Below, in pieces: positions 33,261-51,801 of a DNA stretch of 64,000 bases. Origin of the DNA: Fibrobacteria bacterium (GTDB lineage: Bacteria; Fibrobacterota; Fibrobacteria; UBA11236); NCBI GenBank assembly GCA_041746255.1, contig JBGTHM010000126.1, forward strand, positions 1-64,000, read 5' to 3'. Numbering within the stretch: the stretch's first letter is position 1; each line of letters opens with the position of its first letter. Below the pieces are notes generated by a model, which was not told the DNA's origin, did no database searches, and worked only from the letters and a program-made list of their open reading frames with translations. Made by a program: the position numbers and the translations under genes.

Positions 33261-33827
33261 ATGAAATGCTCTGCTCAATTGATTTTTATCGTCTTACTGG
33301 TGGGAACTCGCATTTCCAGCCATGCCACCTCCATGTTCGAACTGGAGTTAAAGGAATTGGCAACTGGTTCCCAACAGGTGGTTCAGGCCAAGGTTACGGC
33401 CGTAGTACCGCAATGGGAGAATAATCAAACCGTCATTAACACTTATGTGCGGTTAAACATAATAGACGACCTGATTGGGGACGACGAAGACAATGAAATT
33501 ATCGTCAAAATACCGGGAGGTCGGATAGGGACAACCGAACTCAGGGTGGAAGGAACGGCCACCTACAACGTAGGGGAAGAAAACGTTCTTTTCCTTTTTC
33601 GAGATGTGGAAAACAGGACGATTTACCAGACTTTGGGAATGTATCAGGGAAAATACTCGGTATATGCGGATGGAAAAGGAATCCGTCGTGTCGCCAGGGA
33701 TACTACCGGAACAGGAGCAGCTCTGTTCAAGCGGGCGGGAGCCGCCGATATCGCAGAAACCGGCGATCATTTAAGTTTGGAGGATTTTAAAAAGACCGTA
33801 ATCCAATACATCAAGAGTGAAAAATAA
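33261..33827 (+). CDS. Secreted hypothetical protein resembling the N-terminal module of matrixin-like proteins
   Basis: Signal peptide; L.EL...S..VV..KV, IVKIPGG.IG, GEENVLFL, GMYQGKY. Confidence 0.7.
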   Translation: MKCSAQLIFIVLLVGTRISSHATSMFELELKELATGSQQVVQAKVTAVVPQWENNQTVINTYVRLNIIDDLIGDDEDNEIIVKIPGGRIGTTELRVEGTATYNVGEENVLFLFRDVENRTIYQTLGMYQGKYSVYADGKGIRRVARDTTGTGAALFKRAGAADIAETGDHLSLEDFKKTVIQYIKSEK

Positions 33828-33840
33828 CGGGAGGGTAAGA

Positions 33841-36327
33841 ATGTATACAATCTATCGGATATTCCTTCTCGTTACTTTTGCGATTAACTCCGTATGGTCT
33901 TATAAGTTTATCGGGCCGAAGTGGCCCGGCGCCAATCCGGTTGTCCAGTATTGGATCAACGAACAAGGAAGCCCCGAAGTCCTGGACGAAGTCGACCACA
34001 TTGTTAAAAGCTTCAAGGTATGGGACCAGGTGCCGACCTCCACGCTGGAAACGAAATATCTCGGAATGACCGCGGCAAACTCGTGCGCCAAAGACAATAT
34101 CAATCTATTGAAATGGGCGAAGGGGCGGGATTGGACTCTAGGACAGGGAGTCATTGCCGCAGCCTATATCTGGTACAAAAGTGACGTCATTCAGGAATTC
34201 GATATCCTGTTCAATGACCAGCATTTTTCCTGGTCTACCTCAGGGGAGGCCAATAAGATGGATGTCGGCCATATCGCCACCCATGAAGTGGGACATGTTC
34301 TTGGATTGGACCATTCCTCGGTTTCAGGGGCCGTGATGTGGCCCACCGCCCGCCCCGGAGACCTTTCCAATAGAAAATTACATTCCGATGACAGTGCGGG
34401 ACTTTCCGCCCTATATCCACGAACCGACAACAACAATCGGGCTCCCGTCATCACCAGTAAACCGGTAACCGAAGCCGTAGCGGGCATGAAATACGCATAT
34501 AGCGTCACCGCCAATGACCCGGATGGCGACCCGGTTACCTTCAAACTTGAAAAGTATCCGCTTAATATGCGCATAGATGAAAAATCCGGACAGATTACCT
34601 GGTTTCCGAAATTCCTGGATGTAGGATCACATACCGTTACGGTAGTTGCGTTGGATAATTCGAGTAAAACCTCCAAGCAAACCTTTCAGGTAGCGGTTAC
34701 CAACCTTCGGGTTTATACCGAAAACAGGGAAATCCGCCTCGGAGATACATTATTCCATGAGGTGAAAGTGTCTCCTATGGATGAATTCGGCATCTTCTCC
34801 GGCAACATCGAACTTGATTTCAACAATTCACAGATGTCGGTATTGGGAGTGGATACCAAGGGTTCCGTGGTCGATGGCGCCTCCTTCTTCAAGAATATCA
34901 CAGACCGTCAGGTAAAAATCGCCTTCGCAGGATCTGATAGTTTTATCGGTGAAGGTATTTTATTTCGCGTGAAGCTTCTAGTTCATGAGGGTTCCTGCGG
35001 TGAAGTGATCCGCATGGGAATCGGAAAAGCCCTGTTCAACGACGGTGAGCCTGCCGCTACCGTCCAAAACGGAGACATCTTCATGAGTTGCCAGGGTGGA
35101 GATGGGTGGTCAGGTGGATACACAATGGACGGTCGGGTTACCTACCTCGGTAACGGAGAAGGCGTATCCAAAGTGAAATTGGATTTCCCTAAAATGGGAA
35201 AAACAACCACCACGCAAGATGACGGATTTTTTGCGTTTAAAAATGTTCCCCTTCTAAAGATGGATTTTTCCATAATCGCCTCGAAAGATTCCGGCGACAT
35301 ACGAAACGCCATTTCCGCCTATGACGCCTCATTGGTATTGCGCCATGTTGTCGGACTTCACTCTTTGAAAGATTTTGAAAACCAGAAATATGCAGCCGAT
35401 GTCAATGGAAATGGAGTTGTAACCGCGTATGATGCGGCTCTGATTTTACGCCATTTGGTGAACTTGAAAGACATTACCCACATTGGATGGTGGGTTGTGT
35501 CTCCTGATAAACGCAATTTCAATGGGATTCTCGGAGACATGCACAATATTAATTTTGGCGCCTACCTAGTCGGGGATGTGAGCGGTAATTGGAAACAAGA
35601 CCTACCTGTCCTAGCCAAACGAACAGCTGAAAACGATAACAAAGTCTTCCTAAGCGAATACCGGCAACAGGACGTTTCACTGCCCTTGGGAGCGATTGAC
35701 GGATATCGATCGGTAATTTCACTGGCACAGGAAATGGAGGGTATGTATTCGGGCGAATTCGAGTTAGCCTATGATAGCGATAAATATGAATTCCTCGATG
35801 CCCGGTCGCTTCCGATGACCAAAGGCTATCTCTTGGAAAGCAATGCCGTTGGCGACAATATCCGTGTCGTTTTCGCCGGCACCGAGCCCCTTCCCGGTTC
35901 CGGCGAATTATTCGAAGTTTTGCTGGCTCCGAAGTCAAAATTGGGAACGCCACCGCCGCTCAATTCCGATCTCGCCTATTTCAAGGTGAATGAAGGACTC
36001 TTTCAATCTGTGGGAATTATGCAACACGATTCAAAAAATGCGGCTCGGTTCGCCGGTAAACGCCAATTCCGGGTTCAACCGAGAACCGGAGGCCACCTGG
36101 AAATGGAATATTTCGCGGAAACGCCGAGCGAGGTTAGCTTTTCCTTGCTGGACGTCAAGGGACGCATGGTAAAACGGATGTCCCAAGGGCATAAACACTC
36201 CGGCAGCCATAGGCTGACTTGGGAAATCGATAATCGTGGAAACTCCGCAAGGTCAAATCAAATCTATTTCGTAGCCATTTCCATGGGTTCCCGGTCCGAG
36301 ACCGTTAAAGTGTTACTCGTGGAATAA
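33841..36327 (+). CDS. Multidomain matrixin (M10) metalloprotease: peptidase - Ig - cohesin - beta-sandwich - dockerin - cohesin - C-terminal sorting-like domain
   Basis: HEVGHVLGLDH plus Met-turn AVMWP; NRAPVITS...DPDGD; dockerin pair ISAYDASLVLRH / DVNGNGVVTAYDAALILRH; two cohesin-like segments; GGAGG SD before 33841. Confidence 0.85.
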   Translation: MYTIYRIFLLVTFAINSVWSYKFIGPKWPGANPVVQYWINEQGSPEVLDEVDHIVKSFKVWDQVPTSTLETKYLGMTAANSCAKDNINLLKWAKGRDWTLGQGVIAAAYIWYKSDVIQEFDILFNDQHFSWSTSGEANKMDVGHIATHEVGHVLGLDHSSVSGAVMWPTARPGDLSNRKLHSDDSAGLSALYPRTDNNNRAPVITSKPVTEAVAGMKYAYSVTANDPDGDPVTFKLEKYPLNMRIDEKSGQITWFPKFLDVGSHTVTVVALDNSSKTSKQTFQVAVTNLRVYTENREIRLGDTLFHEVKVSPMDEFGIFSGNIELDFNNSQMSVLGVDTKGSVVDGASFFKNITDRQVKIAFAGSDSFIGEGILFRVKLLVHEGSCGEVIRMGIGKALFNDGEPAATVQNGDIFMSCQGGDGWSGGYTMDGRVTYLGNGEGVSKVKLDFPKMGKTTTTQDDGFFAFKNVPLLKMDFSIIASKDSGDIRNAISAYDASLVLRHVVGLHSLKDFENQKYAADVNGNGVVTAYDAALILRHLVNLKDITHIGWWVVSPDKRNFNGILGDMHNINFGAYLVGDVSGNWKQDLPVLAKRTAENDNKVFLSEYRQQDVSLPLGAIDGYRSVISLAQEMEGMYSGEFELAYDSDKYEFLDARSLPMTKGYLLESNAVGDNIRVVFAGTEPLPGSGELFEVLLAPKSKLGTPPPLNSDLAYFKVNEGLFQSVGIMQHDSKNAARFAGKRQFRVQPRTGGHLEMEYFAETPSEVSFSLLDVKGRMVKRMSQGHKHSGSHRLTWEIDNRGNSARSNQIYFVAISMGSRSETVKVLLVE

Positions 36328-39801: not shown

Positions 39802-40650
39802 ATGACTCGCCCCAACCGAAAAACATTTTTCCCATACCTGCGAACCATTCCCGGGATTATCCTGTGCATTGCCTTTGTTAACAGTGCGACAAAGCCCACA
39901 TGCGAATATACGAAAGCGATTCGGCAAGCCGAATTGGGGAATCACCAAGCCAGCCTGAAAATATTGGAACGGTGCCCCGCCGACGATTCCGTATCCCATT
40001 TCTGGAAAGGTCTAAACTACCATGCACTCTATCAACCGGATCCCTCTTTACTGCATTTAAAAAAAGCTTATGGCCAAGGCATACGCAATGATACCTTGCT
40101 GATTAAATTGGCCGAGGTATTCCTCTGGAAGAAGAACTTCCGCGAGGCCTCACGTTTGACGGAACAGGTTATCGACAAGCGCCACCCGGAATTTCTCAAG
40201 GTCAAGGCGCGTCATCACGAAATCCTGGGGGAATTCGCGGAGGCGATAAAACTTTATGACTTGGCCATAGCCAAGGAAAAACTTCCTTATGAAACCATGG
40301 CCCGTAAAGCAACCGTCCTTTCCTGGGCCAAGGATTACGACGGAGCCATCGCCCTTTTCACCGAAATCATCTCCGCGAAAAAGGTTCTTCCACCATTAAG
40401 GAAGAACTGCTTGATACGACGAGCGGAGGTGGTATCCTGGAAAAAAGATTTCGTAGCCGCACTGGCCGATTTGGACGCGGTATTGAAAATGGATAAACAA
40501 AACAGCGAAGCCATTTTACTCAAGGGGAAAATCCTCGAGTGGCAAGGAGAATACCTTTCCGCTAAAAAATTGTATGCGGAAATCCTGAGTTTCGACGCCG
40601 AAAATGACCAGGCGAAGATGCGGTTGGAAAAATTGGAATGGGTCAAATAA
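39802..40650 (+). CDS. Secreted TPR protein (PgaA/AlgK-like scaffold)
   Basis: Signal peptide; TPR repeats with LSW/VSW/LEW motifs; paralog of 48357. Confidence 0.75.
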   Translation: MTRPNRKTFFPYLRTIPGIILCIAFVNSATKPTCEYTKAIRQAELGNHQASLKILERCPADDSVSHFWKGLNYHALYQPDPSLLHLKKAYGQGIRNDTLLIKLAEVFLWKKNFREASRLTEQVIDKRHPEFLKVKARHHEILGEFAEAIKLYDLAIAKEKLPYETMARKATVLSWAKDYDGAIALFTEIISAKKVLPPLRKNCLIRRAEVVSWKKDFVAALADLDAVLKMDKQNSEAILLKGKILEWQGEYLSAKKLYAEILSFDAENDQAKMRLEKLEWVK

Positions 40651-40663
40651 AAAGTAGGAGTTT

Positions 40664-41827
40664 ATGAAATTATCTATATGGATTATAGTCGGGGCCATAT
40701 CGGGAATGGGATTCCCTTCCATCACGTATTCACAAGAGACACTTACTGCCGTAACCACCAAGACCTATGCGCTCTTGGACGATAAGAAGGCGGTCTATCT
40801 CGACTACCCATCGTCGAAGGCGACCCTCTATCAAATCACTTTGGCGGACAAGAGCAAAAAAGTTCTCGTTCCCGAAGGTACGGGGCCAAACTCTACCTTG
40901 TATTTCATGTATTTCGGAGTATCGGGAGACCATCTGGCGTATATACCCTTCTCCACGCAGCCGAAGCCGACCTACCCCTTAAACTATGTCAACCTGGCTA
41001 CCGGCGCCAAAAAAAAATTGACCGCAGATGAAGGATGGAAGGAAACCGTGGAGGTGGGTGGCAACATCGCAGTCTGGATAGATTTTCGCCATAAGACGGC
41101 AGGCGACAAGAATAGCGAAATCTACCTGCACAATCTTTCAACCGGTGCGGAAAAGCGAATTACGACAAGTGTCAGTTATCAGACAAAGGCCGTTACCGAT
41201 GGAAAGCATGTCGCCTGGGTCGACTATGCTAACGGAAATAAAGGCATTGTGGTTCTCCATGATATCGCCACCGGTAAGGATTTTCCGTTGGGCGATGGAA
41301 CTTCACATCAAGATAACCCCCGGGTTTCAGGCGATTTTGTCGTATGGGAAGATTACAGGAATGCGACTTCCGATACCACAAATGCGGATATTTACGCCTA
41401 TAATATCAAAACCAAAGAAACCTTGGGAATTTGTGTAAAACCCGGGTTCCAAGGTACGCCCTATATCAGTGGAAATGCTGTGGTCTGGGAAGATCACCGT
41501 AACGCAGGAAATACGCCTGGAAATGCGGATATTTATGCCTATGATTTGGTGGATGGAAAGGAATATCAGGTTACCCAGGGTCTCGGGTTTGAAGGATCGC
41601 CGGTCGTCTATGGCAATAAAGTGGTCTGGCTGGGTATTGAAGGTAGCGTGATGAGCCTATATCTCGGATCGGTCTCATTCGGAAATACTTCGGTAAAACA
41701 GACTCGGCCTGATTTTTTCCAGAGCGGAAAAAATTCCGGGTCTGAGGTTTATCGGTTGGATGGAAGGGCAGTAACAGGTCCCATGCAAAAATTCCATCCA
41801 GCCTATTTCTCGCCCTGGGTAAAATAG
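40664..41827 (+). CDS. Secreted beta-propeller repeat protein
   Basis: Repeats V(V)W(E/I)D(Y/H/F)R....(A/S)(D/E)IY.Y(N/D)(L/I), resembling the methanogen cell-surface propeller repeat; tail VYRLDGR. Confidence 0.75.
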   Translation: MKLSIWIIVGAISGMGFPSITYSQETLTAVTTKTYALLDDKKAVYLDYPSSKATLYQITLADKSKKVLVPEGTGPNSTLYFMYFGVSGDHLAYIPFSTQPKPTYPLNYVNLATGAKKKLTADEGWKETVEVGGNIAVWIDFRHKTAGDKNSEIYLHNLSTGAEKRITTSVSYQTKAVTDGKHVAWVDYANGNKGIVVLHDIATGKDFPLGDGTSHQDNPRVSGDFVVWEDYRNATSDTTNADIYAYNIKTKETLGICVKPGFQGTPYISGNAVVWEDHRNAGNTPGNADIYAYDLVDGKEYQVTQGLGFEGSPVVYGNKVVWLGIEGSVMSLYLGSVSFGNTSVKQTRPDFFQSGKNSGSEVYRLDGRAVTGPMQKFHPAYFSPWVK

Positions 41828-41831
41828 CAGC

Positions 41832-42950
41832 ATGCCATTCAGGCTTTTACCTCCCCTTTTGGGCCTAATCTGCCTGGTAGAAGGGGCGAATATTCGCTTG
41901 GGGGCGGATTCGCAATGGGACAGCGAAGAATTGCTGTGGGTGAACCGTGGCTCCGTCGAGGCGAACCATTTCTCTGCGCCGTTCGGATCCGTTTCCGTCT
42001 CGGGCCGATATACCCATCACGGTATACTTGAAAATGCCTTCGGGCTCACACCCTTCAATGACAAATTTTACGGCCTGCGCTCCCATTATATCTTGGACCT
42101 GGGGACATACCGGCTGAAAACCGGGGTCGGATGGAATGATTTGGATAAACGGGATGACTTTTACACCCATGCCGGGTTAACCGCCCATTGGCCGATTTCG
42201 ATTGGAACCGGCAGTTCCATCCGTTCCAGTCTTTCCTATACGGGTGAGGTAAATCGGGCCAATCCCCTTCTCTCCATACTTTCCATGCAAAGCCGCGCAA
42301 CTGGATTGGAAGTGGTGTTCCAAACGGGCCCTTGGGTAGTGGAAACGGCAGTCAGCCAAACTTCATTTTCGGCCGCAGATTCGCAGGCTCTGAATGAAAT
42401 ACTAGGCACAACCCGTTCCTTCAACCATATTCCCGAGAACCGGATTTGGAGGGGACATATTTACTTCTACCGCCCTGTGTGGGATTTCCTATATGTGGGA
42501 GCCTATGCGAATTTTGCCGATAGCCGCCACGATTTTTATCAGGCTACCCTCACGCCGACCGCAAACACCGGCAGGTATATGTACTTCCCCTACGAAACAC
42601 CGGTGGAATCCTTCGCACTGGGAGGTGTCCTTTCCGTATCCGTGAATTTAGACGACTTTTTCATTCCGCTCGGCACTCTGAATTCCCGGCTAACCATTCC
42701 CTTCTATTCCCGACGTCAACAATTCTGGGAAGTGATCTCCCCTCCCTTCTATAGCGGCAGCGGGTACTACGCTTTCGAGGGCAGCGAACCCATGCTCAGC
42801 GGCGTAGCTTGGAAAAAGGAGTTAATATCACATGTTACTCTCGCAATTGATTACTCCTTTTATCTCAAACCCTATTACGCATACGGTATTTTCCGCCAAG
42901 AAAGTTATCGCCTGCATCAAGTAGAACTGTCCACTACTTATTCCTTTTGA
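41832..42950 (+). CDS. Putative outer-membrane beta-barrel (possible polymer export porin)
   Basis: Signal peptide, amphipathic aromatic-rich strands, C-terminal VELSTTYSF. Confidence 0.6.
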   Translation: MPFRLLPPLLGLICLVEGANIRLGADSQWDSEELLWVNRGSVEANHFSAPFGSVSVSGRYTHHGILENAFGLTPFNDKFYGLRSHYILDLGTYRLKTGVGWNDLDKRDDFYTHAGLTAHWPISIGTGSSIRSSLSYTGEVNRANPLLSILSMQSRATGLEVVFQTGPWVVETAVSQTSFSAADSQALNEILGTTRSFNHIPENRIWRGHIYFYRPVWDFLYVGAYANFADSRHDFYQATLTPTANTGRYMYFPYETPVESFALGGVLSVSVNLDDFFIPLGTLNSRLTIPFYSRRQQFWEVISPPFYSGSGYYAFEGSEPMLSGVAWKKELISHVTLAIDYSFYLKPYYAYGIFRQESYRLHQVELSTTYSF

Positions 42951-42970
42951 GAAAGTATTAGATACGGGTC

Positions 42971-44419
42971 ATGCTTTTCAACTCCCTCGAATTCGCCTAC
43001 TTCTTCCCCTTAGTGGTCCTGTTTTTTTTCGGGATACCCCACCGCTTCCGCTGGATGCTGCTGCTGGCAGCCAGCTATTACTTCTATATGTGCTGGAAGC
43101 CGGAATATGCCTTATTGCTGATGCTATCGACAGGTATTTCCTATGGTACCGGCATCCTGATGGGGCGTACCGAGGTGAAAGCGCGAAGGAAGGCGTACCT
43201 CATTACCAGCCTTGTAGGAAACCTGGGTATTCTTTTTTGGTTCAAATATGCCGACTTCGTAAACGAGTCCTTCCGTGCAACTTTTCAACACTTCAATATT
43301 TTCTACGGGGTTCCGGTATTTCACATCATATTACCCGTAGGTATCTCTTTTTTCGTTTTCCAATCCCTCAGCTATTCTTTCGATGTTTACCGTGGCCAGC
43401 GGGAATCTGAAAAGCACCTGGGGATTTTTGCCCTGTACGTTGCCTTTTTTCCGCAACTCGTGGCTGGGCCCATAGAAAGGTCCACTCGTTTACTTCCACA
43501 ATTCTTCCAAAAACAAAACTTCGACTACCAACGCGTAACCGATGGCCTGAAGCTGATGCTATGGGGGCTTTTCAAAAAGGTCGTAATTGCCGATCGCCTG
43601 GCGGTGGTGGTGGACCATGTTTACAGCAACCCTGCCGGTCAAAGCGGATCGGCTCTCCTGATAGCCACATATTTCTTTGCCTTCCAGATATACTGCGATT
43701 TTTCAGGTTATTCCGATATGGCCATAGGCGGCGCCAAAATAATGGGTTTTGATTTGATGAAAAATTTCAACCGTCCTTATGCCTCCCTGTCGGTTGCGGA
43801 GTTTTGGAGGCGATGGCATATATCGCTGTCGACTTGGTTCAAAGACTACCTGTACTTTCCGCTCGGCGGCAATCGCGTGGCCAAATCACGATGGTATGCG
43901 AATGTATTCGCGGTGTTCCTGGTAAGCGGCCTTTGGCATGGAGCCAATTGGACCTATGTGATTTGGGGCGCGTTGCACGGCTTCTATCTCGTTTTTGCTT
44001 TGGCCAGTGAAAACATCCGGGCAAAGGCCGCTTCCCTACTCAACATGGAGAAATTTCCCACCTTCCACAAAACCATCCGAATTTTCATCACCTTCCACCT
44101 CGTCCTGTTGGCCTGGGTGTTCTTTCGTGCCGATTCCCTATCTGACGCCATCTATATACTCACGCATATATTCGCGGATTTTTCTCAACCATTAGGCTCA
44201 TTGGACCTGGGCATGTCCTCCCAAGGACTAATTCTTTCCCTTATGGTCATCCTTTTCATGGAGGCCGTGCATTTAGTGCAGGGGCGTCAGGGGAGCGTGA
44301 TTTCGGCTTTATCCCGGAAACCGGTGGTGATTCGATGGGCCGTGTACCTATTTCTGACCTTATCCGTTCTGAACCTGAGAGTGGAGTATCAAGCTCCTTT
44401 CATTTATTTCCAGTTTTAA
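42971..44419 (+). CDS. algI: MBOAT O-acetyltransferase (AlgI/PatA family)
   Basis: MLFNS, LPVGISF, FFPQLVAGPIER, QIYCDFSGYSD, FWRRWHISLS, SGLWHGA, FIYFQF. Confidence 0.92.
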   Translation: MLFNSLEFAYFFPLVVLFFFGIPHRFRWMLLLAASYYFYMCWKPEYALLLMLSTGISYGTGILMGRTEVKARRKAYLITSLVGNLGILFWFKYADFVNESFRATFQHFNIFYGVPVFHIILPVGISFFVFQSLSYSFDVYRGQRESEKHLGIFALYVAFFPQLVAGPIERSTRLLPQFFQKQNFDYQRVTDGLKLMLWGLFKKVVIADRLAVVVDHVYSNPAGQSGSALLIATYFFAFQIYCDFSGYSDMAIGGAKIMGFDLMKNFNRPYASLSVAEFWRRWHISLSTWFKDYLYFPLGGNRVAKSRWYANVFAVFLVSGLWHGANWTYVIWGALHGFYLVFALASENIRAKAASLLNMEKFPTFHKTIRIFITFHLVLLAWVFFRADSLSDAIYILTHIFADFSQPLGSLDLGMSSQGLILSLMVILFMEAVHLVQGRQGSVISALSRKPVVIRWAVYLFLTLSVLNLRVEYQAPFIYFQF

Positions 44420-44425
44420 AGAGTT

Positions 44426-45463
44426 ATGAAATATTTTCTGGTAAAAAGCATACTCTTCCTGGGCTTGGTACTGACCGGTCAAATACTTTTATCCTTGGAA
44501 TATGGAGTGAAGCCCTTCCGGGTCGGCATTCCTGACGCACAAGGCTATACTCCGGATTCGCTCATTCTGGCCTTCCAGCAATTTTTCCAGCCCCACCCCA
44601 CTCTCGGATTCACCTGGAAAGAAAACCTGGGTGCTGATCGCAATATCGATTTGCGTTGGGCCGATCAGGAAGAAGGCGCCGTGGTAACGGATAGGCAAGG
44701 GTTCATCAATTCGCCCTACGCCATCGAAGCCCGCGCAGAGGGGAAACCGATCCATATCATCGGGCTCGGATCCTCGTTCATGCAGGGGGCCGCCGCCATA
44801 TTACACGATTTCTTCTGGGCCAAGGGGTCGTTCTATTACAATATGGCCACGCCTCGCCATACCCTGCCCCAATTCAATATCGTGCTCCGCGATTATGCCT
44901 TGGTGGAAAAGCCGGAGTGGATAGTCTACGACTTGAACGAAGCCAGTTTCAGTTTGATTGGTGACTATGAAAGCTGGTCGGAATCCGGTTTGGAATGGTT
45001 CACTTACCATTCGGGAACCTGGAGTGGGCCTCCCATTGAAACGAGCTTCGCTGCCAGGGTTCTGGAGAAACACCCTGCATTAAACGGGTTGGCTCAATCC
45101 ATGCGGAGAAAAGTCGGATTTACCCCGACAATCGAAACCTTGAGCGATAAGGAAGCCGTTGATAAGGCCTATGCCTACATCTCCTCCGCCCATGCCTTGG
45201 CGCAAAAGGAAGGGATTAAATTCTTCGTTCTACTCATCCCCAGTAAAGACGTGGCGATTTACGGTAAATCCGAAAAATCGGCTTTATTGAATGCCACCCT
45301 CCCTCGCTTGCAAAATGCGGGAATTCCCGTGTTGGACTTACGGATTCCCTTTGCCACGGAAAACGATCCGCGCGCCTTGTATTATAAAATCGACGGTCAT
45401 TGGAACTCCTACGGAATCTATAAAGCCGGCATGGCCATGGCCGATTTCATGGCCGAAAAATGA
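44426..45463 (+). CDS. SGNH-like O-acetyltransferase (AlgJ/AlgX-like)
   Basis: N-terminal TM helix; IIGLGSSF (GDS-like Ser) and IDGHWN (DxH) motifs; follows the MBOAT gene. Confidence 0.75.
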   Translation: MKYFLVKSILFLGLVLTGQILLSLEYGVKPFRVGIPDAQGYTPDSLILAFQQFFQPHPTLGFTWKENLGADRNIDLRWADQEEGAVVTDRQGFINSPYAIEARAEGKPIHIIGLGSSFMQGAAAILHDFFWAKGSFYYNMATPRHTLPQFNIVLRDYALVEKPEWIVYDLNEASFSLIGDYESWSESGLEWFTYHSGTWSGPPIETSFAARVLEKHPALNGLAQSMRRKVGFTPTIETLSDKEAVDKAYAYISSAHALAQKEGIKFFVLLIPSKDVAIYGKSEKSALLNATLPRLQNAGIPVLDLRIPFATENDPRALYYKIDGHWNSYGIYKAGMAMADFMAEK

Positions 45464-45528
45464 ACTGTTTCGGACTTCAACGAATATGATATACTTGCAC
45501 CATGTACGAATAATAGAAAGGGACGAAA

Positions 45529-46338
45529 ATGGACGATTTATCCAAATGTCAAGCTGTGATACTTTGCGGGGGACAAGGCACCCGAATCCGCTCTGTAAGC
45601 GAGGATAAACCCAAGCCGCTTATCGATGTGGGTGGTAAGCCCATTCTTTGGCACATTATGAAAATTTATTCCTTTTACGGAGTGCGGAAGTTCATCTTGT
45701 GTCTAGGTCACAAAGGCGATGCCATCATCGATTTTTTCGAGAACTACCATGCCTATAACCATGACTTTTCCATGAGCATCGGCAATAAGGATAAGAAATC
45801 ATTCCATTACCCGGAAAAGTACAAGGACGGCGCCGACGTCAATGAATGGGAAATCACCTTCGCATTAACCGGCGAAGAAACGCAAACCGGTGGTCGAATC
45901 CGGCGCATCGAACCGTATGTCAAGAACGACACGTTTTTCTGTACTTACGGTGATGGCGTGTGTGATTCCGACTTGCGCCAGCTCCATGCATTCCACCTGG
46001 CCAAGGGCAAGATTGCAACTCTGACGGGAGTGCATTTGCCAACCACCTTCGGCATCGTGGAAGCCGATGATAAAGGGGACATATCCTCTTTCCGGGAAAA
46101 ACCGGTGATGTCAGGACTTATCAACGGCGGGTTTTTCGCCTTCAACAAAGGTCTTTTCGATTACCTGGACGGAGACGATACCATTCTCGAAGGCAAGCCC
46201 TTCAAGAAACTGGTACGCGACCAACAAATCGGAATGTTCCGCCATGAAGGCTTTTGGCATTGCATGGATACTTACAAGGATTATCAGAACCTAAACCAGC
46301 TTTGGAAGGAAAATAAGGCCCCATGGAAAATCTGGTAG
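45529..46338 (+). CDS. rfbF: Glucose-1-phosphate cytidylyltransferase
   Basis: VILCGGQGTR, KPKPL, PILWHIMK, TGGRI, TYGDG, FWHCMDT, APWKIW. Confidence 0.93.
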   Translation: MDDLSKCQAVILCGGQGTRIRSVSEDKPKPLIDVGGKPILWHIMKIYSFYGVRKFILCLGHKGDAIIDFFENYHAYNHDFSMSIGNKDKKSFHYPEKYKDGADVNEWEITFALTGEETQTGGRIRRIEPYVKNDTFFCTYGDGVCDSDLRQLHAFHLAKGKIATLTGVHLPTTFGIVEADDKGDISSFREKPVMSGLINGGFFAFNKGLFDYLDGDDTILEGKPFKKLVRDQQIGMFRHEGFWHCMDTYKDYQNLNQLWKENKAPWKIW

Positions 46339-46358
46339 GTCGCAAGCAGGAGTTCAAC

Positions 46359-47462
46359 ATGGAAAAACTATTTTCAGGCGTCTATAAAGGAAAGACCGTG
46401 ATGGTAACCGGCCATACCGGTTTCAAAGGCTCTTGGCTAAGCATGTGGCTTTGTCGCATGGGCGCCAAGGTGGTGGGATTCTCCCTCGGGCCACCCACCG
46501 AACCCAGCCACCTTCCCTTGCTTAAGCTGGACATGGTTTCCTTAAACGGGGATGTGAGGGATTTCTCAGCGGTGCAAAAGGCCATGCAAGCGCATAATCC
46601 CGAAATTGTCTTTCATCTGGCCGCCCAGCCTATTGTGCGCCTCTCCTACCAACAACCCCTGGAAACCTACCATACCAACGTAATGGGAACCGCCAATGTG
46701 CTGGAAGCTTGCCGCGGCCAGGACTCGGTAAAGGCGATTGTATGTATCACCTCCGATAAGGTATACGACAACCAGGAATGGGCTTGGGGGTATCGGGAGA
46801 ATGACCGATTGGGAGGATTCGATCCCTATAGCGCCTCCAAGGCTTGCGCCGAATTGGTCATTGCCAGCTACCGTAATGCCTTCATGAATCTGAAAAATTA
46901 TGGAAAAACCCATAATAAGCTCATCGCCTCGGTCCGTGCCGGCAATGTAATCGGCGGGGGTGATTGGGCTCCCGACAGGCTCATTCCCGATGCCGTACGC
47001 GCTGCCAGCCGTAAGGAAACCGTGGTCATACGCAATCCTTCGGCTACGCGCCCCTGGCAACACGTGCTCGAATGCCTTTCGGGTTATCTCGTCGTCGGCG
47101 AAAAGTTACTGAAGGGAGAATCCGCCATAGCCCGCGAATGGAATTTCGGTCCCTTGGAAGGCGGAATTTACAGCGTTGGTCATGTCGTCAAGGAATTGGG
47201 AGAATGCTGGTCGGATATTAAGCATGTGGTGGAATTGGATCCCAATAATCCCCATGAAGCTTTTTCCCTTACGCTGGATTCGTCATTTGCCACCATCAAG
47301 CTGGGATGGAAACCGGCTTGGCCTAACAGCCTCACTTTCTTGCGCACCATCGATTGGTATCGCGAATATTACACGTCCGGAAAAGTTACCAGCCAAGCCA
47401 ACCTTGAGGATTATGTGGCGTCCGCCCAGGAAGGTAAGATTCCATGGTCCAAAGTATCCTGA
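46359..47462 (+). CDS. rfbG: CDP-glucose 4,6-dehydratase
   Basis: TGHTGFKGSWL, HLAAQP, TSDK, YSASK, RAGNVIGGGDW, RPWQHVLE. Confidence 0.95.
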   Translation: MEKLFSGVYKGKTVMVTGHTGFKGSWLSMWLCRMGAKVVGFSLGPPTEPSHLPLLKLDMVSLNGDVRDFSAVQKAMQAHNPEIVFHLAAQPIVRLSYQQPLETYHTNVMGTANVLEACRGQDSVKAIVCITSDKVYDNQEWAWGYRENDRLGGFDPYSASKACAELVIASYRNAFMNLKNYGKTHNKLIASVRAGNVIGGGDWAPDRLIPDAVRAASRKETVVIRNPSATRPWQHVLECLSGYLVVGEKLLKGESAIAREWNFGPLEGGIYSVGHVVKELGECWSDIKHVVELDPNNPHEAFSLTLDSSFATIKLGWKPAWPNSLTFLRTIDWYREYYTSGKVTSQANLEDYVASAQEGKIPWSKVS

Positions 47463-48367
47463 TCACCGGAGCCAACGGTTTCGTCGGTGGGCATTTGGCC
47501 CGGGCTCTGGCCTCCAGTGGCACCCGATCCCTCCTATTGACGGGAAGGCAGGAAACCTACTCCCACGGAACCTTGCCCCCGGGATGTCAATACCTACAGG
47601 CCGATTTGGAAAACCCTTCCGAGGCGATGACAAGATCACGCTTCGATATCATCATTCATCTGGCGGCGGCGCTCAGTACCCAGGACTCCTCAACCGCGCG
47701 TAGGGCGCTGATGGATGCCAACGTATCGTGCACGCTTTCCATGCTCGAATTGGCCCGGGAGCACGGAGCTTTTTTCGTTTTCCCCTCTTCCGGTTTGCTC
47801 TATGGCGACCAACCCGGTCCGCATCATGAGGATCTGCCTTTACTGCCCTTGAATTTTTACACGTTTTCCAAGTTGATGGCGGAGCAGCTGATCGAACATT
47901 TTCACCGATATCATGCCGTAAAGGCTTTGGTCTTACGCGCTTCGCTCATTTACGGTCCCGGCCAGGGTGGTGCGATGTTCATTCCTTCCATCGTCAAAGC
48001 CCTGGTCGACGGCGAAGAGTTTCCCATGACGGCCGGTCAACAAAAACGGGATTTCATCTATATCGACGATCTCATAGCTGCCCTCGATTCGGCAATCTCC
48101 CAGCAATTGACCGGCACCTTCAACTTGGGGGGAGGAGTCGCTCCCACTTTAGCGGAAGTGGCGGAAATGGCGGGTCAAATCACCGGCAATTCCTCCAAAC
48201 TCCGCATGGGAGCCATACCCTACCGTAAAGTCGAGTCGTGGGAATATTTTCTGCAAATCGGAAAATTACAAAAAGCACTGGGCTGGTCTCCGCGAGTGGA
48301 TTTAAAAACGGGTTTGGAAAAAGTAGTCCAGTACGAAAAGGACAAAAGGCGGCGGCTTGGAAAATAG
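47444..48367 (+). CDS. NAD-dependent nucleotide-sugar epimerase/4-reductase (extended SDR)
   Basis: TGANGFVG, HLAA, YxxxK (YTFSK), IYGPG, RDFIYIDD. Confidence 0.88.
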   Translation: MVQSILITGANGFVGGHLARALASSGTRSLLLTGRQETYSHGTLPPGCQYLQADLENPSEAMTRSRFDIIIHLAAALSTQDSSTARRALMDANVSCTLSMLELAREHGAFFVFPSSGLLYGDQPGPHHEDLPLLPLNFYTFSKLMAEQLIEHFHRYHAVKALVLRASLIYGPGQGGAMFIPSIVKALVDGEEFPMTAGQQKRDFIYIDDLIAALDSAISQQLTGTFNLGGGVAPTLAEVAEMAGQITGNSSKLRMGAIPYRKVESWEYFLQIGKLQKALGWSPRVDLKTGLEKVVQYEKDKRRRLGK

Positions 48368-49208
48368 AGATTCTCTTCGAAAAGCCGTTATCCGGGCGAT
48401 TACCGGCGTCCTAGTTCCTTTAGGAATCGCTTATGCTGGTACTACAGTCCCGTCCCTCGCGTGCGATTCCGTGCACGCGCTGGAGAGAATCAGGGCGGAA
48501 GAATACCCCCAGGCCTTGAAGGAATTGCCCAATTGCCAGACTTCGAATAATTACTCCAAGTGGGTAGGACTTGCTTATCATGGTCTGCAAATCGCCGATT
48601 CCACCGTGCATTATTTGAGTTTGGCCCGGAAAAATAAACCCGTAGACGATACCCTGAAATTATGCCTTGCCGAGGGGCTTTTCTGGCAGAAGAAAATTCG
48701 CGAAGGGTCCCGCCTTCTGGATGAGGTCAAGAATAAGCAAAGCCTCGCCTATTTGAGGGTAGCTGCTACGCAATTGGAAATGCGTAATAAGTTCGGTCAA
48801 GCCATCAAAGTGCATGATCGCATTCTCGCTCAGGAACCAACCGCATCTGCTTCCATCTTCAAAAAAGCCATGCTGCTTTCTTGGATGAAGCGTCTGGACG
48901 AGTCTATACAGATCTATACAGGACTCATCGATTCGGAGGATGTGCCGGCTTCCATGAAAGTGAATAGCCGCATCCATCGGGCGGAAGTCATTGCCTGGAA
49001 AGGTGATTTTGTCCGTGCCCTCGCCGAACTGGATGAAGTGCTTAAGCTGGACGCGAATAATATTCCAGCTCGGCTACAAAAGGGTGTAATTCACGAATGG
49101 CGCGGTGAGTTCAAAGAAGCCAAAAATATTTACCGGGACATCCTCCTGATTGAGCCGGAAAACCCGTCCGGCAAGGCTAAACTGGAAACGCTGTTATGGG
49201 TCAGGTAG
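48357..49208 (+). CDS. Secreted TPR protein, paralog of 39802
   Basis: Shared motifs GLAYH/GLNYH, DDTL..LAE..FW, RAEV..WK.DF, and C-terminal LE.L.WV(R/K). Confidence 0.75.
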   Translation: MENRDSLRKAVIRAITGVLVPLGIAYAGTTVPSLACDSVHALERIRAEEYPQALKELPNCQTSNNYSKWVGLAYHGLQIADSTVHYLSLARKNKPVDDTLKLCLAEGLFWQKKIREGSRLLDEVKNKQSLAYLRVAATQLEMRNKFGQAIKVHDRILAQEPTASASIFKKAMLLSWMKRLDESIQIYTGLIDSEDVPASMKVNSRIHRAEVIAWKGDFVRALAELDEVLKLDANNIPARLQKGVIHEWRGEFKEAKNIYRDILLIEPENPSGKAKLETLLWVR

Positions 49209-50737
49209 GTTTTTTCACCGGTACCAAAACCCTCAAGGTCAGTACCGCCGATAAAATTATTTTTCTAATCCTAATTACCCTGGGAATACAGGCCGCGTTG
49301 TATTTCGCCGATTATTGGTTTCTCGGTGACCACCGGAAAAACCTCATACTCTTCCCCATCCTGAGCTACGCCATTTTCCGTGGTGTTTTCCGCAGCATCG
49401 CAAGTTGGTTCATATTCCTATTCGCCTCCATACCCAGTGAGCGGAAATCCACAAGCAGCCGGACGGTAGATGTTCTCATGACAGCCATGCCGGGGGAGCC
49501 GCTGGAGATGTTCGCCACCACCTTACAAGCCATTTCTGAAATGCGACATCCGCATACCACTTATCTGCTGGACGGCGGAGATAGCCCTGAACTCAAGGAC
49601 TTGTGCCATAAATTCGGAGCGCAACACGTCAATTGTGTCGGTATCGGTGGCGCCAAAGCAGGCAAGGTGAATCACTGTTTACGGAATTTCGCCAAAAGTG
49701 AAATCGTGCTGGTGCTCGATCCGGACCACATTCCCAAACCCGACTTCATTGACAGGGTGCTTCCGCAATTCGAAGATGAAAAAGTGGGTTTCGTCCAAGT
49801 CGTACAGAGCTATTACAACATCCGGGAAAATTTCGTCGCGAGGGGAGCGGCGGAACAAACCTACGGATTCTACGGGCCCTTGATGATGGGTCTCAACGGT
49901 TTGGGCATACCCGTAGCCATAGGCGCCAATTGCACCTTCCGCAGGGCGGCGCTCGACAGCATCGGCGGTCACGCCGAATCGTTGGCCGAGGACGTCAACA
50001 CCTCGCTTCGTCTGCATGCCCAGGGATGGAAAAGCGTCTACCTACCTTTTCGCGCCTCTTACGGATTGGTTCCCGCCGATTTGAAATCCTTCTACAGCCA
50101 ACAATTGAAATGGGCGGCTGGGATGTTCCGGTTGTTCTTCGGCGAATATTTCAAGGTTTTCCCACGCTTGAACCTACAGGCCAAATTGAATTATTTATTT
50201 TCCGGCACCTTCTACCTGCACGGGTTAACATATTTTCTCACCATGGTTTTGCCCATAGTCTTTTTATTCGGACAAATCTACGCGGTGGAAATGAAATTCA
50301 GCGAGTTCCTCTATCACGCCCTGCCCTTTCTCTTGGTTGCGACCTCCATCATTTATTTCGTGCAAAGGTGGTATTCAGACGAAGGGGAAAAAGGCTTTCC
50401 TTGGCGTTCCATGCTATTGGAGCGCGGAACCTGGCACATCTATTTTCTGGCTTTGATTTATACCCTCATAGGGAAAAAGGTATTGTATTTGCCCACTCCC
50501 AAAAAGGCGGGGAAGCAGGGCGGGCTCATTCTGGCCTTGCCCCATCTGGCGGTTATTCTTCTTTCCGGAGCCGCCATTGTATTCGCCCTGAACACTTACC
50601 ACCGCATCGATGATGGCACCCGGCTGATGGTATTCTTCGCAAGCTTGAATATCGTGACGCTCTTGCCCACGGTGTTTATCTGTCTTCAGGATTATCTCCC
50701 CCGAGCCACCAAAAGCGGAAACGGCGGGGTATCATGA
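49196..50737 (+). CDS. Processive GT2 polysaccharide synthase (cellulose-synthase-like, no PilZ domain)
   Basis: LLDGG, AKAG, LDPDH (DxD), FVQ..Q, GAN..FRR.AL, AED, QQLKW (QxxRW variant), PTPK; multiple TM helices. Confidence 0.88.
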   Translation: MGQVGFFTGTKTLKVSTADKIIFLILITLGIQAALYFADYWFLGDHRKNLILFPILSYAIFRGVFRSIASWFIFLFASIPSERKSTSSRTVDVLMTAMPGEPLEMFATTLQAISEMRHPHTTYLLDGGDSPELKDLCHKFGAQHVNCVGIGGAKAGKVNHCLRNFAKSEIVLVLDPDHIPKPDFIDRVLPQFEDEKVGFVQVVQSYYNIRENFVARGAAEQTYGFYGPLMMGLNGLGIPVAIGANCTFRRAALDSIGGHAESLAEDVNTSLRLHAQGWKSVYLPFRASYGLVPADLKSFYSQQLKWAAGMFRLFFGEYFKVFPRLNLQAKLNYLFSGTFYLHGLTYFLTMVLPIVFLFGQIYAVEMKFSEFLYHALPFLLVATSIIYFVQRWYSDEGEKGFPWRSMLLERGTWHIYFLALIYTLIGKKVLYLPTPKKAGKQGGLILALPHLAVILLSGAAIVFALNTYHRIDDGTRLMVFFASLNIVTLLPTVFICLQDYLPRATKSGNGGVS

Positions 50738-51801
50738 AAACTTTCCGTTACCTCCTACTGGGTTTGGCCTATGCCGTCGTATTGGGTCTATTGTATATCC
50801 ATGTCGTTCCCCGCATAGAAGCCCGCGCCAAACATTTGACCTTCAATTATTTGATCAAAAACCTGGCGCATGACAAAAACGCCTTACTGAAGAACCAGTC
50901 CTTCCACTTGGGAATTTATCGTCCGGAACTGCCCTATCATTTCGACAAGGTGTTTGAAGTGGAAGATAGTTTGGGCGTCTCCCTTTCCATCATTTCCTAT
51001 TACCAGGCCTGGGGAGAAGGTCCCGAGCATGAGCTGAACCGGGAGATTTTGGAAAACATCCATCGCGGCGGTTATACGCCGATGATTACCTGGGAGCCCT
51101 GGGTTTCCGCATTCCCACAATACCGTGGAATCGTGCCGGATTCCAGCTTGACATTCATCTCCCAGGGAGAATTCGACGACTACATACGAAGGTGGGCCCG
51201 CGAGGCGACCCGATACGGAAAGCCGATGCTGGTGCGCTACGCCCATGAATTTTCCAATCATTGGTACGGTTGGAGCAGTACCCGCGGAAACGACAGCGCC
51301 GCATTCATCGATGCCTGGAGGCATGTGCATGACATCTTCCAGGAGGAAGGGGCGCGAAACGTGGCTTTCGTCTGGAATCCCTTTTTACCGCAAGATACGG
51401 CGTATTATCCCGGAGCGGAATACGTCGATTGGGTCACCTTGGATATTTTCAACTTTGGACCCATAGTTGAGGATGGTTATTGGCTGGACTTTTTCACCTT
51501 GGCCCGGACTTTGTATAACCCCATGCGTCAATTCGACAAACCCATACTAATCGCCGAAACAGGAAGCGTTCCAGCGGGTGGAAATAAAAATCATTGGTAT
51601 CGGGACATGTTTCACTCACTGGCACAAGGGGACTTTCCCCTGGTAAAAGGCTTGGTGCTTTTTGACACCCCCCTGGCCAAGGCTCCCAACGGAATGGATG
51701 TCGACCTGTCCATGACCTCCGACGATGAGGTCTATGCGGCCATCAAGGAGCATCCTTCCATGGAAAAGTTAGGGCTTAGACCCGTCAAGCGACGAGACTG
51801 A
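50734..51801 (+). CDS. Membrane-anchored glycoside hydrolase family 26
   Basis: PMITWEPW, G.FDDYI..WA, RYAHEF...WY.W, FVWNP, YYPG..YVDW, KPILIAETG. Confidence 0.9.
   Translation: MKTFRYLLLGLAYAVVLGLLYIHVVPRIEARAKHLTFNYLIKNLAHDKNALLKNQSFHLGIYRPELPYHFDKVFEVEDSLGVSLSIISYYQAWGEGPEHELNREILENIHRGGYTPMITWEPWVSAFPQYRGIVPDSSLTFISQGEFDDYIRRWAREATRYGKPMLVRYAHEFSNHWYGWSSTRGNDSAAFIDAWRHVHDIFQEEGARNVAFVWNPFLPQDTAYYPGAEYVDWVTLDIFNFGPIVEDGYWLDFFTLARTLYNPMRQFDKPILIAETGSVPAGGNKNHWYRDMFHSLAQGDFPLVKGLVLFDTPLAKAPNGMDVDLSMTSDDEVYAAIKEHPSMEKLGLRPVKRRD

Follow-up and report, generated by a model that had tools for sequence, protein, structure and literature searches.

A BcsA-like synthase operon with core CDP-sugar genes in Fibrobacteria: a probable synthase-dependent polysaccharide secretion system

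This work concerns a cluster of 11 genes at positions 39802..51801 of a 64,000-nucleotide stretch of DNA from a Fibrobacteria bacterium (GenBank assembly GCA_041746255.1, contig JBGTHM010000126.1, positions 1 to 64,000), referred to here as the window. The cluster combines a synthase of glycosyltransferase family 2 (GT2) with scaffold, porin, hydrolase, and nucleotide-sugar genes, and it raises two questions: do these genes form one polysaccharide secretion system, and which sugar would such a system polymerize? An initial annotation had proposed a synthase-dependent exopolysaccharide system matching none of the cellulose, alginate, poly-N-acetylglucosamine (PNAG), and Pel systems, and this part of the proposal stands. 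We consider it highly probable, on the basis of predicted folds, that the 11 genes form a synthase-dependent polysaccharide secretion system. Our preferred explanation, to which we give somewhat better than even credence, is that the operon polymerizes a cytidine diphosphate (CDP)-linked 6-deoxy-D-hexose, quinovose or D-fucose, into an extracellular beta-glycan. This explanation draws on gene content, synteny, folds, and motif changes; activity, sugar, and linkage are predicted from them.

Gene content of the operon

The list of open reading frames (ORFs) places all 11 genes on the plus strand. Successive junctions are gaps of 13, 4, 20, 6, and 65 bp, followed by overlaps of 16, 19, 11, 13, and 4 bp. 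The genes are as follows.

39802..40650, + strand: tetratricopeptide repeat (TPR) protein A, 282 amino acids (aa); Pfam TPR_19, N-terminal hydrophobic signal
40664..41827, + strand: beta-propeller protein, 387 aa, with a C-terminal tail; TIGR04275 at 113 bits, over the cutoff
41832..42950, + strand: outer-membrane 16-strand beta-barrel of the BcsC/PgaA/PelB type, 372 aa, predicted export porin; AlphaFold2 (AF2) model
42971..44419, + strand: AlgI/WssH-like membrane-bound O-acyltransferase (MBOAT), 482 aa, accessory; PF03062, E 4e-29
44426..45463, + strand: AlgX/AlgJ-like SGNH O-acetyltransferase, 345 aa, with an N-terminal membrane anchor, accessory; PF16822, over the cutoff
45529..46338, + strand: RfbF-type glucose-1-phosphate cytidylyltransferase, 269 aa, core; TIGR02623 at 283.9 bits, cutoff 300.25
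46323..47462, + strand: RfbG CDP-glucose 4,6-dehydratase, 379 aa (367 aa if the second Met is the start), core; TIGR02622 at 473.8 bits, over the cutoff
47444..48367, + strand: extended short-chain dehydrogenase/reductase (SDR), 307 aa, core, predicted C4 reductase of CDP-4-keto-6-deoxyglucose; conserved motifs
48357..49208, + strand: TPR protein B, 283 aa, predicted periplasmic scaffold; Pfam TPR
49196..50737, + strand: processive GT2 synthase, 513 aa, BcsA fold without PilZ; AF2, Foldseek, and motifs
50734..51801, + strand: glycoside hydrolase family 26 (GH26) endoglycanase, 355 aa, N-terminal membrane helix, lichenase-like, core; PF02156

Pfam supports the labels of both TPR proteins, the MBOAT, the AlgX-like SGNH protein, the GT2 synthase, and the GH26 enzyme. 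NCBIfam recognizes the propeller repeat and RfbG, and it places RfbF slightly below the cutoff. Neither library gave a family match for ORF 41832. Together with the junction lengths and the structural model of that ORF, these assignments confirm the tightly spaced or overlapping co-directional arrangement and the gene labels given initially.

Distribution and conserved core

Orthologs of the synthase, defined by at least 50% identity, were found in 30 of 296 Fibrobacterota genomes. One of these genomes (G009) has all eleven genes in identical order; given this and the core common to the 30 synthase-bearing genomes, the operon is not a chance assembly, and the question of co-occurrence raised initially is answered. 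Around the 30 synthases, GH26 was counted at 29 loci, TPR at 28, the barrel and the SDR at 27 each, rfbF and rfbG at 26 each, and the propeller at 24, against 7 each for MBOAT and SGNH and 2 for a pair of TPR genes. The four loci without rfbF and rfbG run into contig edges; three of them have those genes on separate short contigs, and in the fourth genome (G137) neither was found. All of rfbF, rfbG, and the SDR lie on the synthase stretch in 26 of the 30 genomes. Gene order varies, but rfbF-rfbG-SDR remains a block upstream of TPR-GT2-GH26. The conserved core is thus rfbF-rfbG-SDR, TPR, synthase, GH26, and porin; the acetylation pair and the second TPR gene are accessory. O-acetylation and two TPR paralogs, which the initial annotation had treated as defining features, do not hold up as such.

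In a metagenome scan, of which the best 80 of 489 confirmed loci were analyzed, the same core was present at all high-scoring loci whose upstream DNA was long enough. Most close homologs carry Fibrobacterota names; one close record is titled Bifidobacteriales, which we take as a mislabel. The clade extends to a Bacteroidota record and to records named Polyangia, the latter on the synthase motif only, the loci themselves being unseen. Lower-scoring metagenome synthases (40 to 48% identity) form two sister clades, at whose loci no match to rfbF, rfbG, or the SDR was found.

These two sister systems, which also look undescribed, differ in layout. In the Asp-type operon (L123-L167; e.g., L160:8596-12702 and L162:8551-12693), a fused TPR-barrel gene accompanies the synthase and GH26, a large repeat-rich secreted protein often follows, and no nucleotide-sugar genes lie nearby; its proteins are in part named Thermoanaerobaculia/Acidobacteriota. 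The Glu-type clade (L140, L149, L153-L155, L157, L159, L165, and L166) has synthase ORFs of 913 to 1272 aa, fused to GH26 in all three tested and often preceded by a 450-aa protein without a Pfam match. Two further observations concern synthase-related genes. A conserved ORF of ∼110 aa with a single membrane helix stands between TPR and synthase in 11 loci (L066-L074, L076, and L080; e.g., L074:6070-6405) and is absent from the window. Proteins of ∼1050 aa that begin with a signal-like segment and carry a BcsA-like GT2 domain from about residue 485 (L028:6111-9284 and L029:6707-9847) occur in several genomes of the same class.

Synthase fold and nucleotide pocket

The AF2 model of the synthase has a predicted local distance difference test score (pLDDT) of 93.2, and its best Foldseek match is R. 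sphaeroides BcsA (Protein Data Bank [PDB] entry 4p00; E 8.6e-24, TMq 0.78). In the model the chain terminates after the last membrane helix, leaving no PilZ domain. The motifs are LLDGG (DDG changed to DG), GAKAGK, DPD, AED, QQLKW, and YLPTPK, and the DxD, ED, and QxxxW motifs are retained in the alignment. On the strength of this model and these motifs, we predict a processive inner-membrane GT2 enzyme with a translocation channel.

The altered DDG motif follows gene content. In an alignment of 105 rows, the second residue of DDG is Gly wherever CDP genes are linked (39 of 39 rows) and Asp or Glu in all 24 rows without them, the latter class being defined by at least 4.5 kb of upstream DNA with none linked; outside this count stand 39 rows of unknown context (20 Gly, 19 Asp/Glu) and three reference rows, all acidic. 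The base-groove residues 97-98 likewise differ between clades. When the motif columns were removed, all 59 Gly rows still formed one clade with a support of 98 (FastTree, as for all trees here).

The structural meaning of this position can be approached through plant cellulose synthase. In poplar CesA8, the first-strand motif builds the base groove, and Asp294 of DDG lies within hydrogen-bonding distance of the uracil ring nitrogen (PMC9934533). Since 29 residues separate E265 from D294 in CesA8 and likewise E151 from D180 in R. sphaeroides BcsA, Asp294 would be the second Asp of DDG, provided that no indel intervenes; short-fragment PDB searches for the plant CesA numbering gave chance matches only. 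Because cytosine lacks a donatable proton at N3, base chemistry suggests that loss of the Asp carboxylate would fit a CDP-linked donor.

CDP-sugar genes and the predicted sugar

The window's RfbG is the only one in its source genome (a single match in G000), and the SDR lies directly downstream of rfbG in every complete locus. GxxGxxG, Ser115, and Tyr139xxxLys143 of the SDR are invariant. The product of RfbG is a 4-keto sugar, for which the SDR is the only candidate reductase. PDB, plasmid, and Atlas searches did not settle its reaction or C4 stereochemistry and returned no close characterized homolog. RfbH exceeded its cutoff in 1 of the 30 genomes and was not found in the source genome (best of five candidates, 177 versus 423 bits), which makes 3,6-dideoxy sugars unlikely. 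The operon has no 3,5-epimerase; one RmlC-type gene lies elsewhere in the source genome. A precedent for the proposed route is found in Campylobacter jejuni HS:41, in which RfbF, RfbG, and a C4 reductase lead to CDP-D-fucose (PMC12369002).

Between the two C4 epimers, quinovose is favored over D-fucose, since the GH26 enzyme is far closer to a beta-1,3-1,4-glucanase than to mannanases or beta-1,3-xylanases; the SDR product is therefore more likely CDP-quinovose than CDP-D-fucose. D-Fucose, for its part, has the same ring configuration as L-arabinopyranose, the sugar of the rhizobial aps system discussed below. As to the consumer of the CDP-sugar, the synthase is the sole glycosyltransferase recurring in the operon across the 30 loci, and neither a flippase nor a polymerase recurs there.

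The RfbF and RfbG proteins of the cluster form clades of their own. Of 20 other Fibrobacterota rfbG loci, 18 group outside them, among these the second copies present in two genomes (G061 and G295). The two exceptions, which fall inside the cluster-type rfbG clade, are in G135 and G090. In G135 (L189:1758-5298) a decayed copy of the operon retains intact rfbF-rfbG-SDR followed by short MBOAT and SGNH fragments, and G090 has a lone cluster-type rfbG; neither genome yielded a synthase ortholog. Elsewhere the cluster genes have been exchanged in place. At L111:6284-7201 the cluster rfbF is replaced by an unrelated rfbF that is 78% identical to a non-cluster copy, and at L116 and L122 both genes have given way to unrelated rfbF and rfbG copies in the place of the cluster genes. 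These swaps suggest that the function was retained when the genes were exchanged.

GH26, export, and acetylation proteins

In the GH26 enzyme the catalytic residues E172 and E275 are invariant, and a hydrophobic segment spans residues 7-25 at the N terminus. Its best match is the lichenase CtLic26A, with a family profile E value of 5.5e-44 versus 2.6e-13 or weaker for mannanases and 5.6e-10 or weaker for beta-1,3-xylanases. We predict a periplasmic, membrane-anchored endoglycanase on the lichenase (beta-1,3-1,4-glucanase) side of the family; an assignment as beta-mannanase is not supported, the profile being far nearer to lichenase than to characterized mannanases. On the same grounds the beta-mannan product entertained initially is disfavored, and mannan was rejected as a defining feature. 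Two stand-alone GH26 genes lie elsewhere in the source genome (on C34 and C65).

The product of ORF 41832 was modeled together with 27 homologs. Its AF2 model is a 16-strand barrel (pLDDT 93.4), which settles whether this ORF encodes a barrel, and Foldseek ranks BcsC first (E 2.6e-8). A wide structural search (VIA) gave Z scores of 24.2 for BcsC (root mean square deviation 3.8, 297 residues aligned), 22.9 for PgaA, and 22.0 for PelBC; the next fold followed at 16.7, and AlgE scored 12.0. The protein is accordingly modeled as a predicted outer-membrane export porin of the BcsC/PgaA/PelB type. No Pfam or NCBIfam model covers this new family of predicted porins, of which 156 representatives were found at E ≤ 0.001.

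TPR protein B occupies a conserved position just before the synthase, and its C-terminal LxW motif is invariant. One polypeptide of a sister clade matches both the TPR B family (HH probability 98.7, at its N terminus) and the barrel family (97.2); TPR and barrel in one polypeptide is the BcsC/PgaA architecture (PMC8892547). From these matches, TPR B is predicted to be a periplasmic scaffold that corresponds to the TPR half of a BcsC/PgaA-like exporter, split off as a separate protein. TPR A shares 38% identity with TPR B and is likely its lineage-specific duplicate, also a periplasmic scaffold. Of 14 propeller orthologs, 7 match the type IX secretion system (T9SS) sorting tail TIGR04183 at E ≤ 0.01, 2 of them over the cutoff; the window's own copy gave no such match (NCBIfam). 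Such tails suggest an exported or surface-located accessory; the propeller's Atlas matches all score below 0.9 and serve as leads only. A propeller paralog with a lipoprotein-like N terminus and no C-terminal tail occurs at L077, L078, L079, and L082, alone or beside the tailed form.

The acetylation genes always occur together in the 7 loci that have them. The MBOAT has the LWHG His motif, and the SGNH protein has the conserved block-I Ser and DxHW. Among the 11 genes, Pfam and NCBIfam revealed no AlgF/WssG adaptor and no second SGNH protein; a genome-wide search was not made. The source genome encodes two more AlgI-like MBOAT proteins, with 43 to 44% identity (G000:C32:36164-37606 and G000:C81:64005-65534).

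Comparison with known systems

The closest known system is rhizobial aps, whose operon order is uxs1-uxe-apsS-apsH1-apsE-apsH2 (PMC7902896 and PMC12560781). Plasmid matches led to operons with a UDP (uridine diphosphate)-glucuronate decarboxylase, a GalE-like epimerase, GT2, and GH26, and the aps operon on the unannotated pSymB record of S. meliloti 1021 was identified from gene order. The ApsS-type GT2 and ApsE-type GH26 of this record are distant homologs of the window's proteins: the synthase is 26% identical over 459 aa (E 3e-34) and GH26 is 30% identical over 205 aa (E 4e-17). In both systems, dedicated nucleotide-sugar genes precede a BcsA-like GT2 gene, which is followed by GH26, and both would supply sugars without a C6 hydroxyl. 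In contrast, aps has uxs1 and uxe, genes for UDP-xylose/arabinose, as well as ApsH1/ApsH2, where the operon has rfbF, rfbG, and the SDR. The aps system also retains an acidic second residue (LADE) and is induced via the cyclic di-GMP (c-di-GMP) regulator CuxR. Searching the pSymB record with the cluster profiles gave no TPR, barrel, propeller, MBOAT, or SGNH match, and the two ORFs in the ApsH positions matched no cluster profile. An ApsS-like synthase (L088) is the outgroup of the tree, on a long branch.

With the Bcs cellulose systems, including the acetylated Wss type, the operon shares the synthase fold, a BcsC-type 16-strand porin, a TPR scaffold, and a periplasmic endoglycanase, and with Wss also the optional MBOAT and SGNH acetylation. 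Unlike Bcs, it has no PilZ and no BcsB, GH26 in place of GH8, separate TPR and porin genes, DG for DDG, and core CDP-sugar genes. TIGR03030 scores 145 bits on the synthase versus a cutoff of 699, and neither BcsB nor a GH8 BcsZ was found among the 11 genes with Pfam and NCBIfam. The split TPR and porin recall AlgK-AlgE of alginate (PMC8892547), and the AlgI-like plus AlgX/J-like acetylation pair is likewise shared with alginate. Alginate, PNAG, and Pel all share export through TPR and porin, and the porin is structurally close to PgaA and PelB but far from AlgE. The cluster differs from these three in having no lyase, deacetylase, epimerase, AlgF, or c-di-GMP receptor, and from PNAG in having a BcsA-like, not PgaC-like, synthase. 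Such a receptor is common, though not universal, in synthase-dependent systems; the Pfam and NCBIfam search for c-di-GMP receptor families covered the 11 genes, and the rest of the genome was not searched.

RfbFGH pathways make CDP-3,6-dideoxyhexoses, and the O-antigen pathways of this kind share RfbF (slightly under its cutoff here) and RfbG with the operon. The CDP-D-fucose pathway of C. jejuni HS:41 shares a cytidylyltransferase, a 4,6-dehydratase, and a reductase-type SDR (PMC12369002). Unlike CDP-6-deoxyhexose pathways, the operon lacks a 3,5-epimerase, a mutase, and RfbH, and the predicted user of its sugar is a processive membrane synthase instead of a lipid-linked repeat-unit transferase. 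In all, the operon resembles Bcs, Pga, and Pel in export and aps in logic, and by its gene content it belongs to none of them. The initial annotation had overlooked the core standing of the CDP genes, the synthase base motif that changed with them, the pairing of BcsA-like GT2 and GH26 in aps, and the frequent T9SS-type tail of the propeller.

Proposed mechanism and alternative explanations

In the mechanism that we favor, RfbF would make CDP-glucose, RfbG would convert it to CDP-4-keto-6-deoxyglucose, and the SDR would reduce C4 to give CDP-quinovose (more likely) or CDP-D-fucose. The BcsA-like GT2 enzyme, its uracil-reading Asp replaced by Gly, would use this CDP-6-deoxy sugar, alone or with CDP-glucose, to extend a chain and push the polymer through its own inner-membrane channel. 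Membrane-anchored GH26 would trim or clear the polymer in the periplasm, and the TPR scaffold and 16-strand porin, which are one protein in a sister clade, would take it across the outer membrane. At roughly one locus in four, the window's among them, the polymer would be O-acetylated by MBOAT and SGNH. A narrower form of this proposal, namely, that a single remodeling of the base pocket switched the enzyme from UDP to CDP donors and that the product is a homopolymer, either a 6-deoxy-glucan ("quinovan") or a D-fucan, is put forward tentatively, as somewhat short of an even chance.

Several observations weigh against synthesis from a CDP-6-deoxy sugar. The best solved relatives of the SDR are 4-epimerases and dehydratases, and most SDR orthologs have an NAD-type Asp after strand 2, where the reductase precedent uses NADPH. 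The CDP genes can outlast the synthase, as in G135 and G090, and their pairwise divergence tracks that of the synthase less closely (Spearman 0.44 to 0.50) than does that of the secretion genes (0.71 to 0.81). Because the Asp-to-Gly change falls on one branch, the 39-versus-24 contrast amounts to a single event, and part of its rows are near-duplicates. In PMC10237404, UDP-glucose coordination is assigned to the first Asp, which is retained here. The same text gives DNN for the unrelated Orphan GT2 enzymes of pseudomonads, meaning that variation at the second Asp does not require CDP genes. Finally, the sister loci are contigs, and CDP genes may lie elsewhere in their genomes.

Some of these points serve another explanation, which we regard as unlikely while giving it appreciable weight: the same machine may make a plain beta-glucan, cellulose-like or mixed-linkage, from UDP- or CDP-glucose, while the CDP-6-deoxy sugar either feeds another glycan or is attached, as a cap or side branch, by a glycosyltransferase whose gene lies outside the operon. 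A beta-1,3-1,4-glucanase as nearest relative of GH26, BcsA as nearest relative of the synthase, sister systems without linked nucleotide-sugar genes, and the two genomes that keep CDP genes without a synthase are all consistent with a glucan, and RfbF alone would give CDP-glucose. What argues for the 6-deoxy polymer over the glucan is that no second glycosyltransferase recurs in the 30 loci, that rfbG and the SDR are retained in every fully assembled locus, and that the base-reading residue is altered exactly in this clade, a change needless for a user of UDP-glucose.

We consider a manno-configured product improbable, whether beta-mannan, glucomannan, or D-rhamnan; here the SDR would be a C2 epimerase like CDP-tyvelose epimerase. 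In its favor, mannanases make up most of the solved GH26 enzymes, the SDR matches include CDP-tyvelose 2-epimerases (E 5e-38), and one such enzyme is reported to interconvert CDP-glucose and CDP-mannose (PMC7851689). These 2-epimerases, however, rank beneath about 20 other SDRs, a 2-epimerase would leave the 4-keto product of RfbG without a reductase, the operon has no GDP-mannose genes, and the GH26 profile points to lichenase. Still less credible, in our judgment very improbable, is that rfbF and rfbG play their usual role in a described lipid-linked pathway for O-antigen, capsule, or protein glycosylation. O-antigen and capsule loci are where these genes are best known (PMC12369002 and other Fibrobacterota loci). 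Yet by Pfam and NCBIfam the 11 genes include no Wzx, Wzy, ABC transporter, ligase, or oligosaccharyltransferase, the absence of O-antigen assembly genes bearing on an alternative raised initially; RfbH is confined to one of the 30 genomes, the porin belongs to the synthase-dependent export class, and the cluster RfbF and RfbG stand in separate clades.

Should polymerization of a CDP-6-deoxyhexose be correct, the product would be a new natural polymer. A quinovan or D-fucan would be a methyl-bearing, more hydrophobic analogue of cellulose, optionally O-acetylated. As a homopolymer it would leave the cell through a dedicated split BcsC-type porin, in a system that has spread over Fibrobacterota, Polyangia, and some Bacteroidota. 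It would also be a candidate biofilm or matrix polymer for the mostly uncultured Fibrobacterota. Our literature search, subscription journals, supplements, and primary APS papers aside, found no description of the operon; likewise, outside subscription journals, it found no processive GT2 synthase using a CDP-sugar and no bacterial quinovan. The operon would further be a clean system for testing how a cellulose-type synthase selects its nucleotide base and a C6-deoxy sugar, with swap experiments feasible because close sister enzymes have Asp or Glu and no CDP genes.

Operon boundaries and other features of the window

Upstream, the operon is flanked by a divergent hybrid histidine kinase gene and downstream by pyrC, convergent and 10 bp away (both assigned with Pfam and NCBIfam); pyrC was rejected as an operon member as it lies on the opposite strand. 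Promoter and terminator scans stayed at chance level (12 hits versus 14.9 expected and 21 versus 18.2, respectively) and hence were not used. Elsewhere in the window, translations of positions 1683-32478 resemble a heavy-metal efflux region, with two P-type ATPase-like ORFs, a CzcCBA-like trio, and a CusA-like ORF. Positions 33817-36327 encode an 836-aa secreted protein with matrixin-type peptidase, Ig, cohesin-like, dockerin-like, and FlgD-Ig domains (Pfam).

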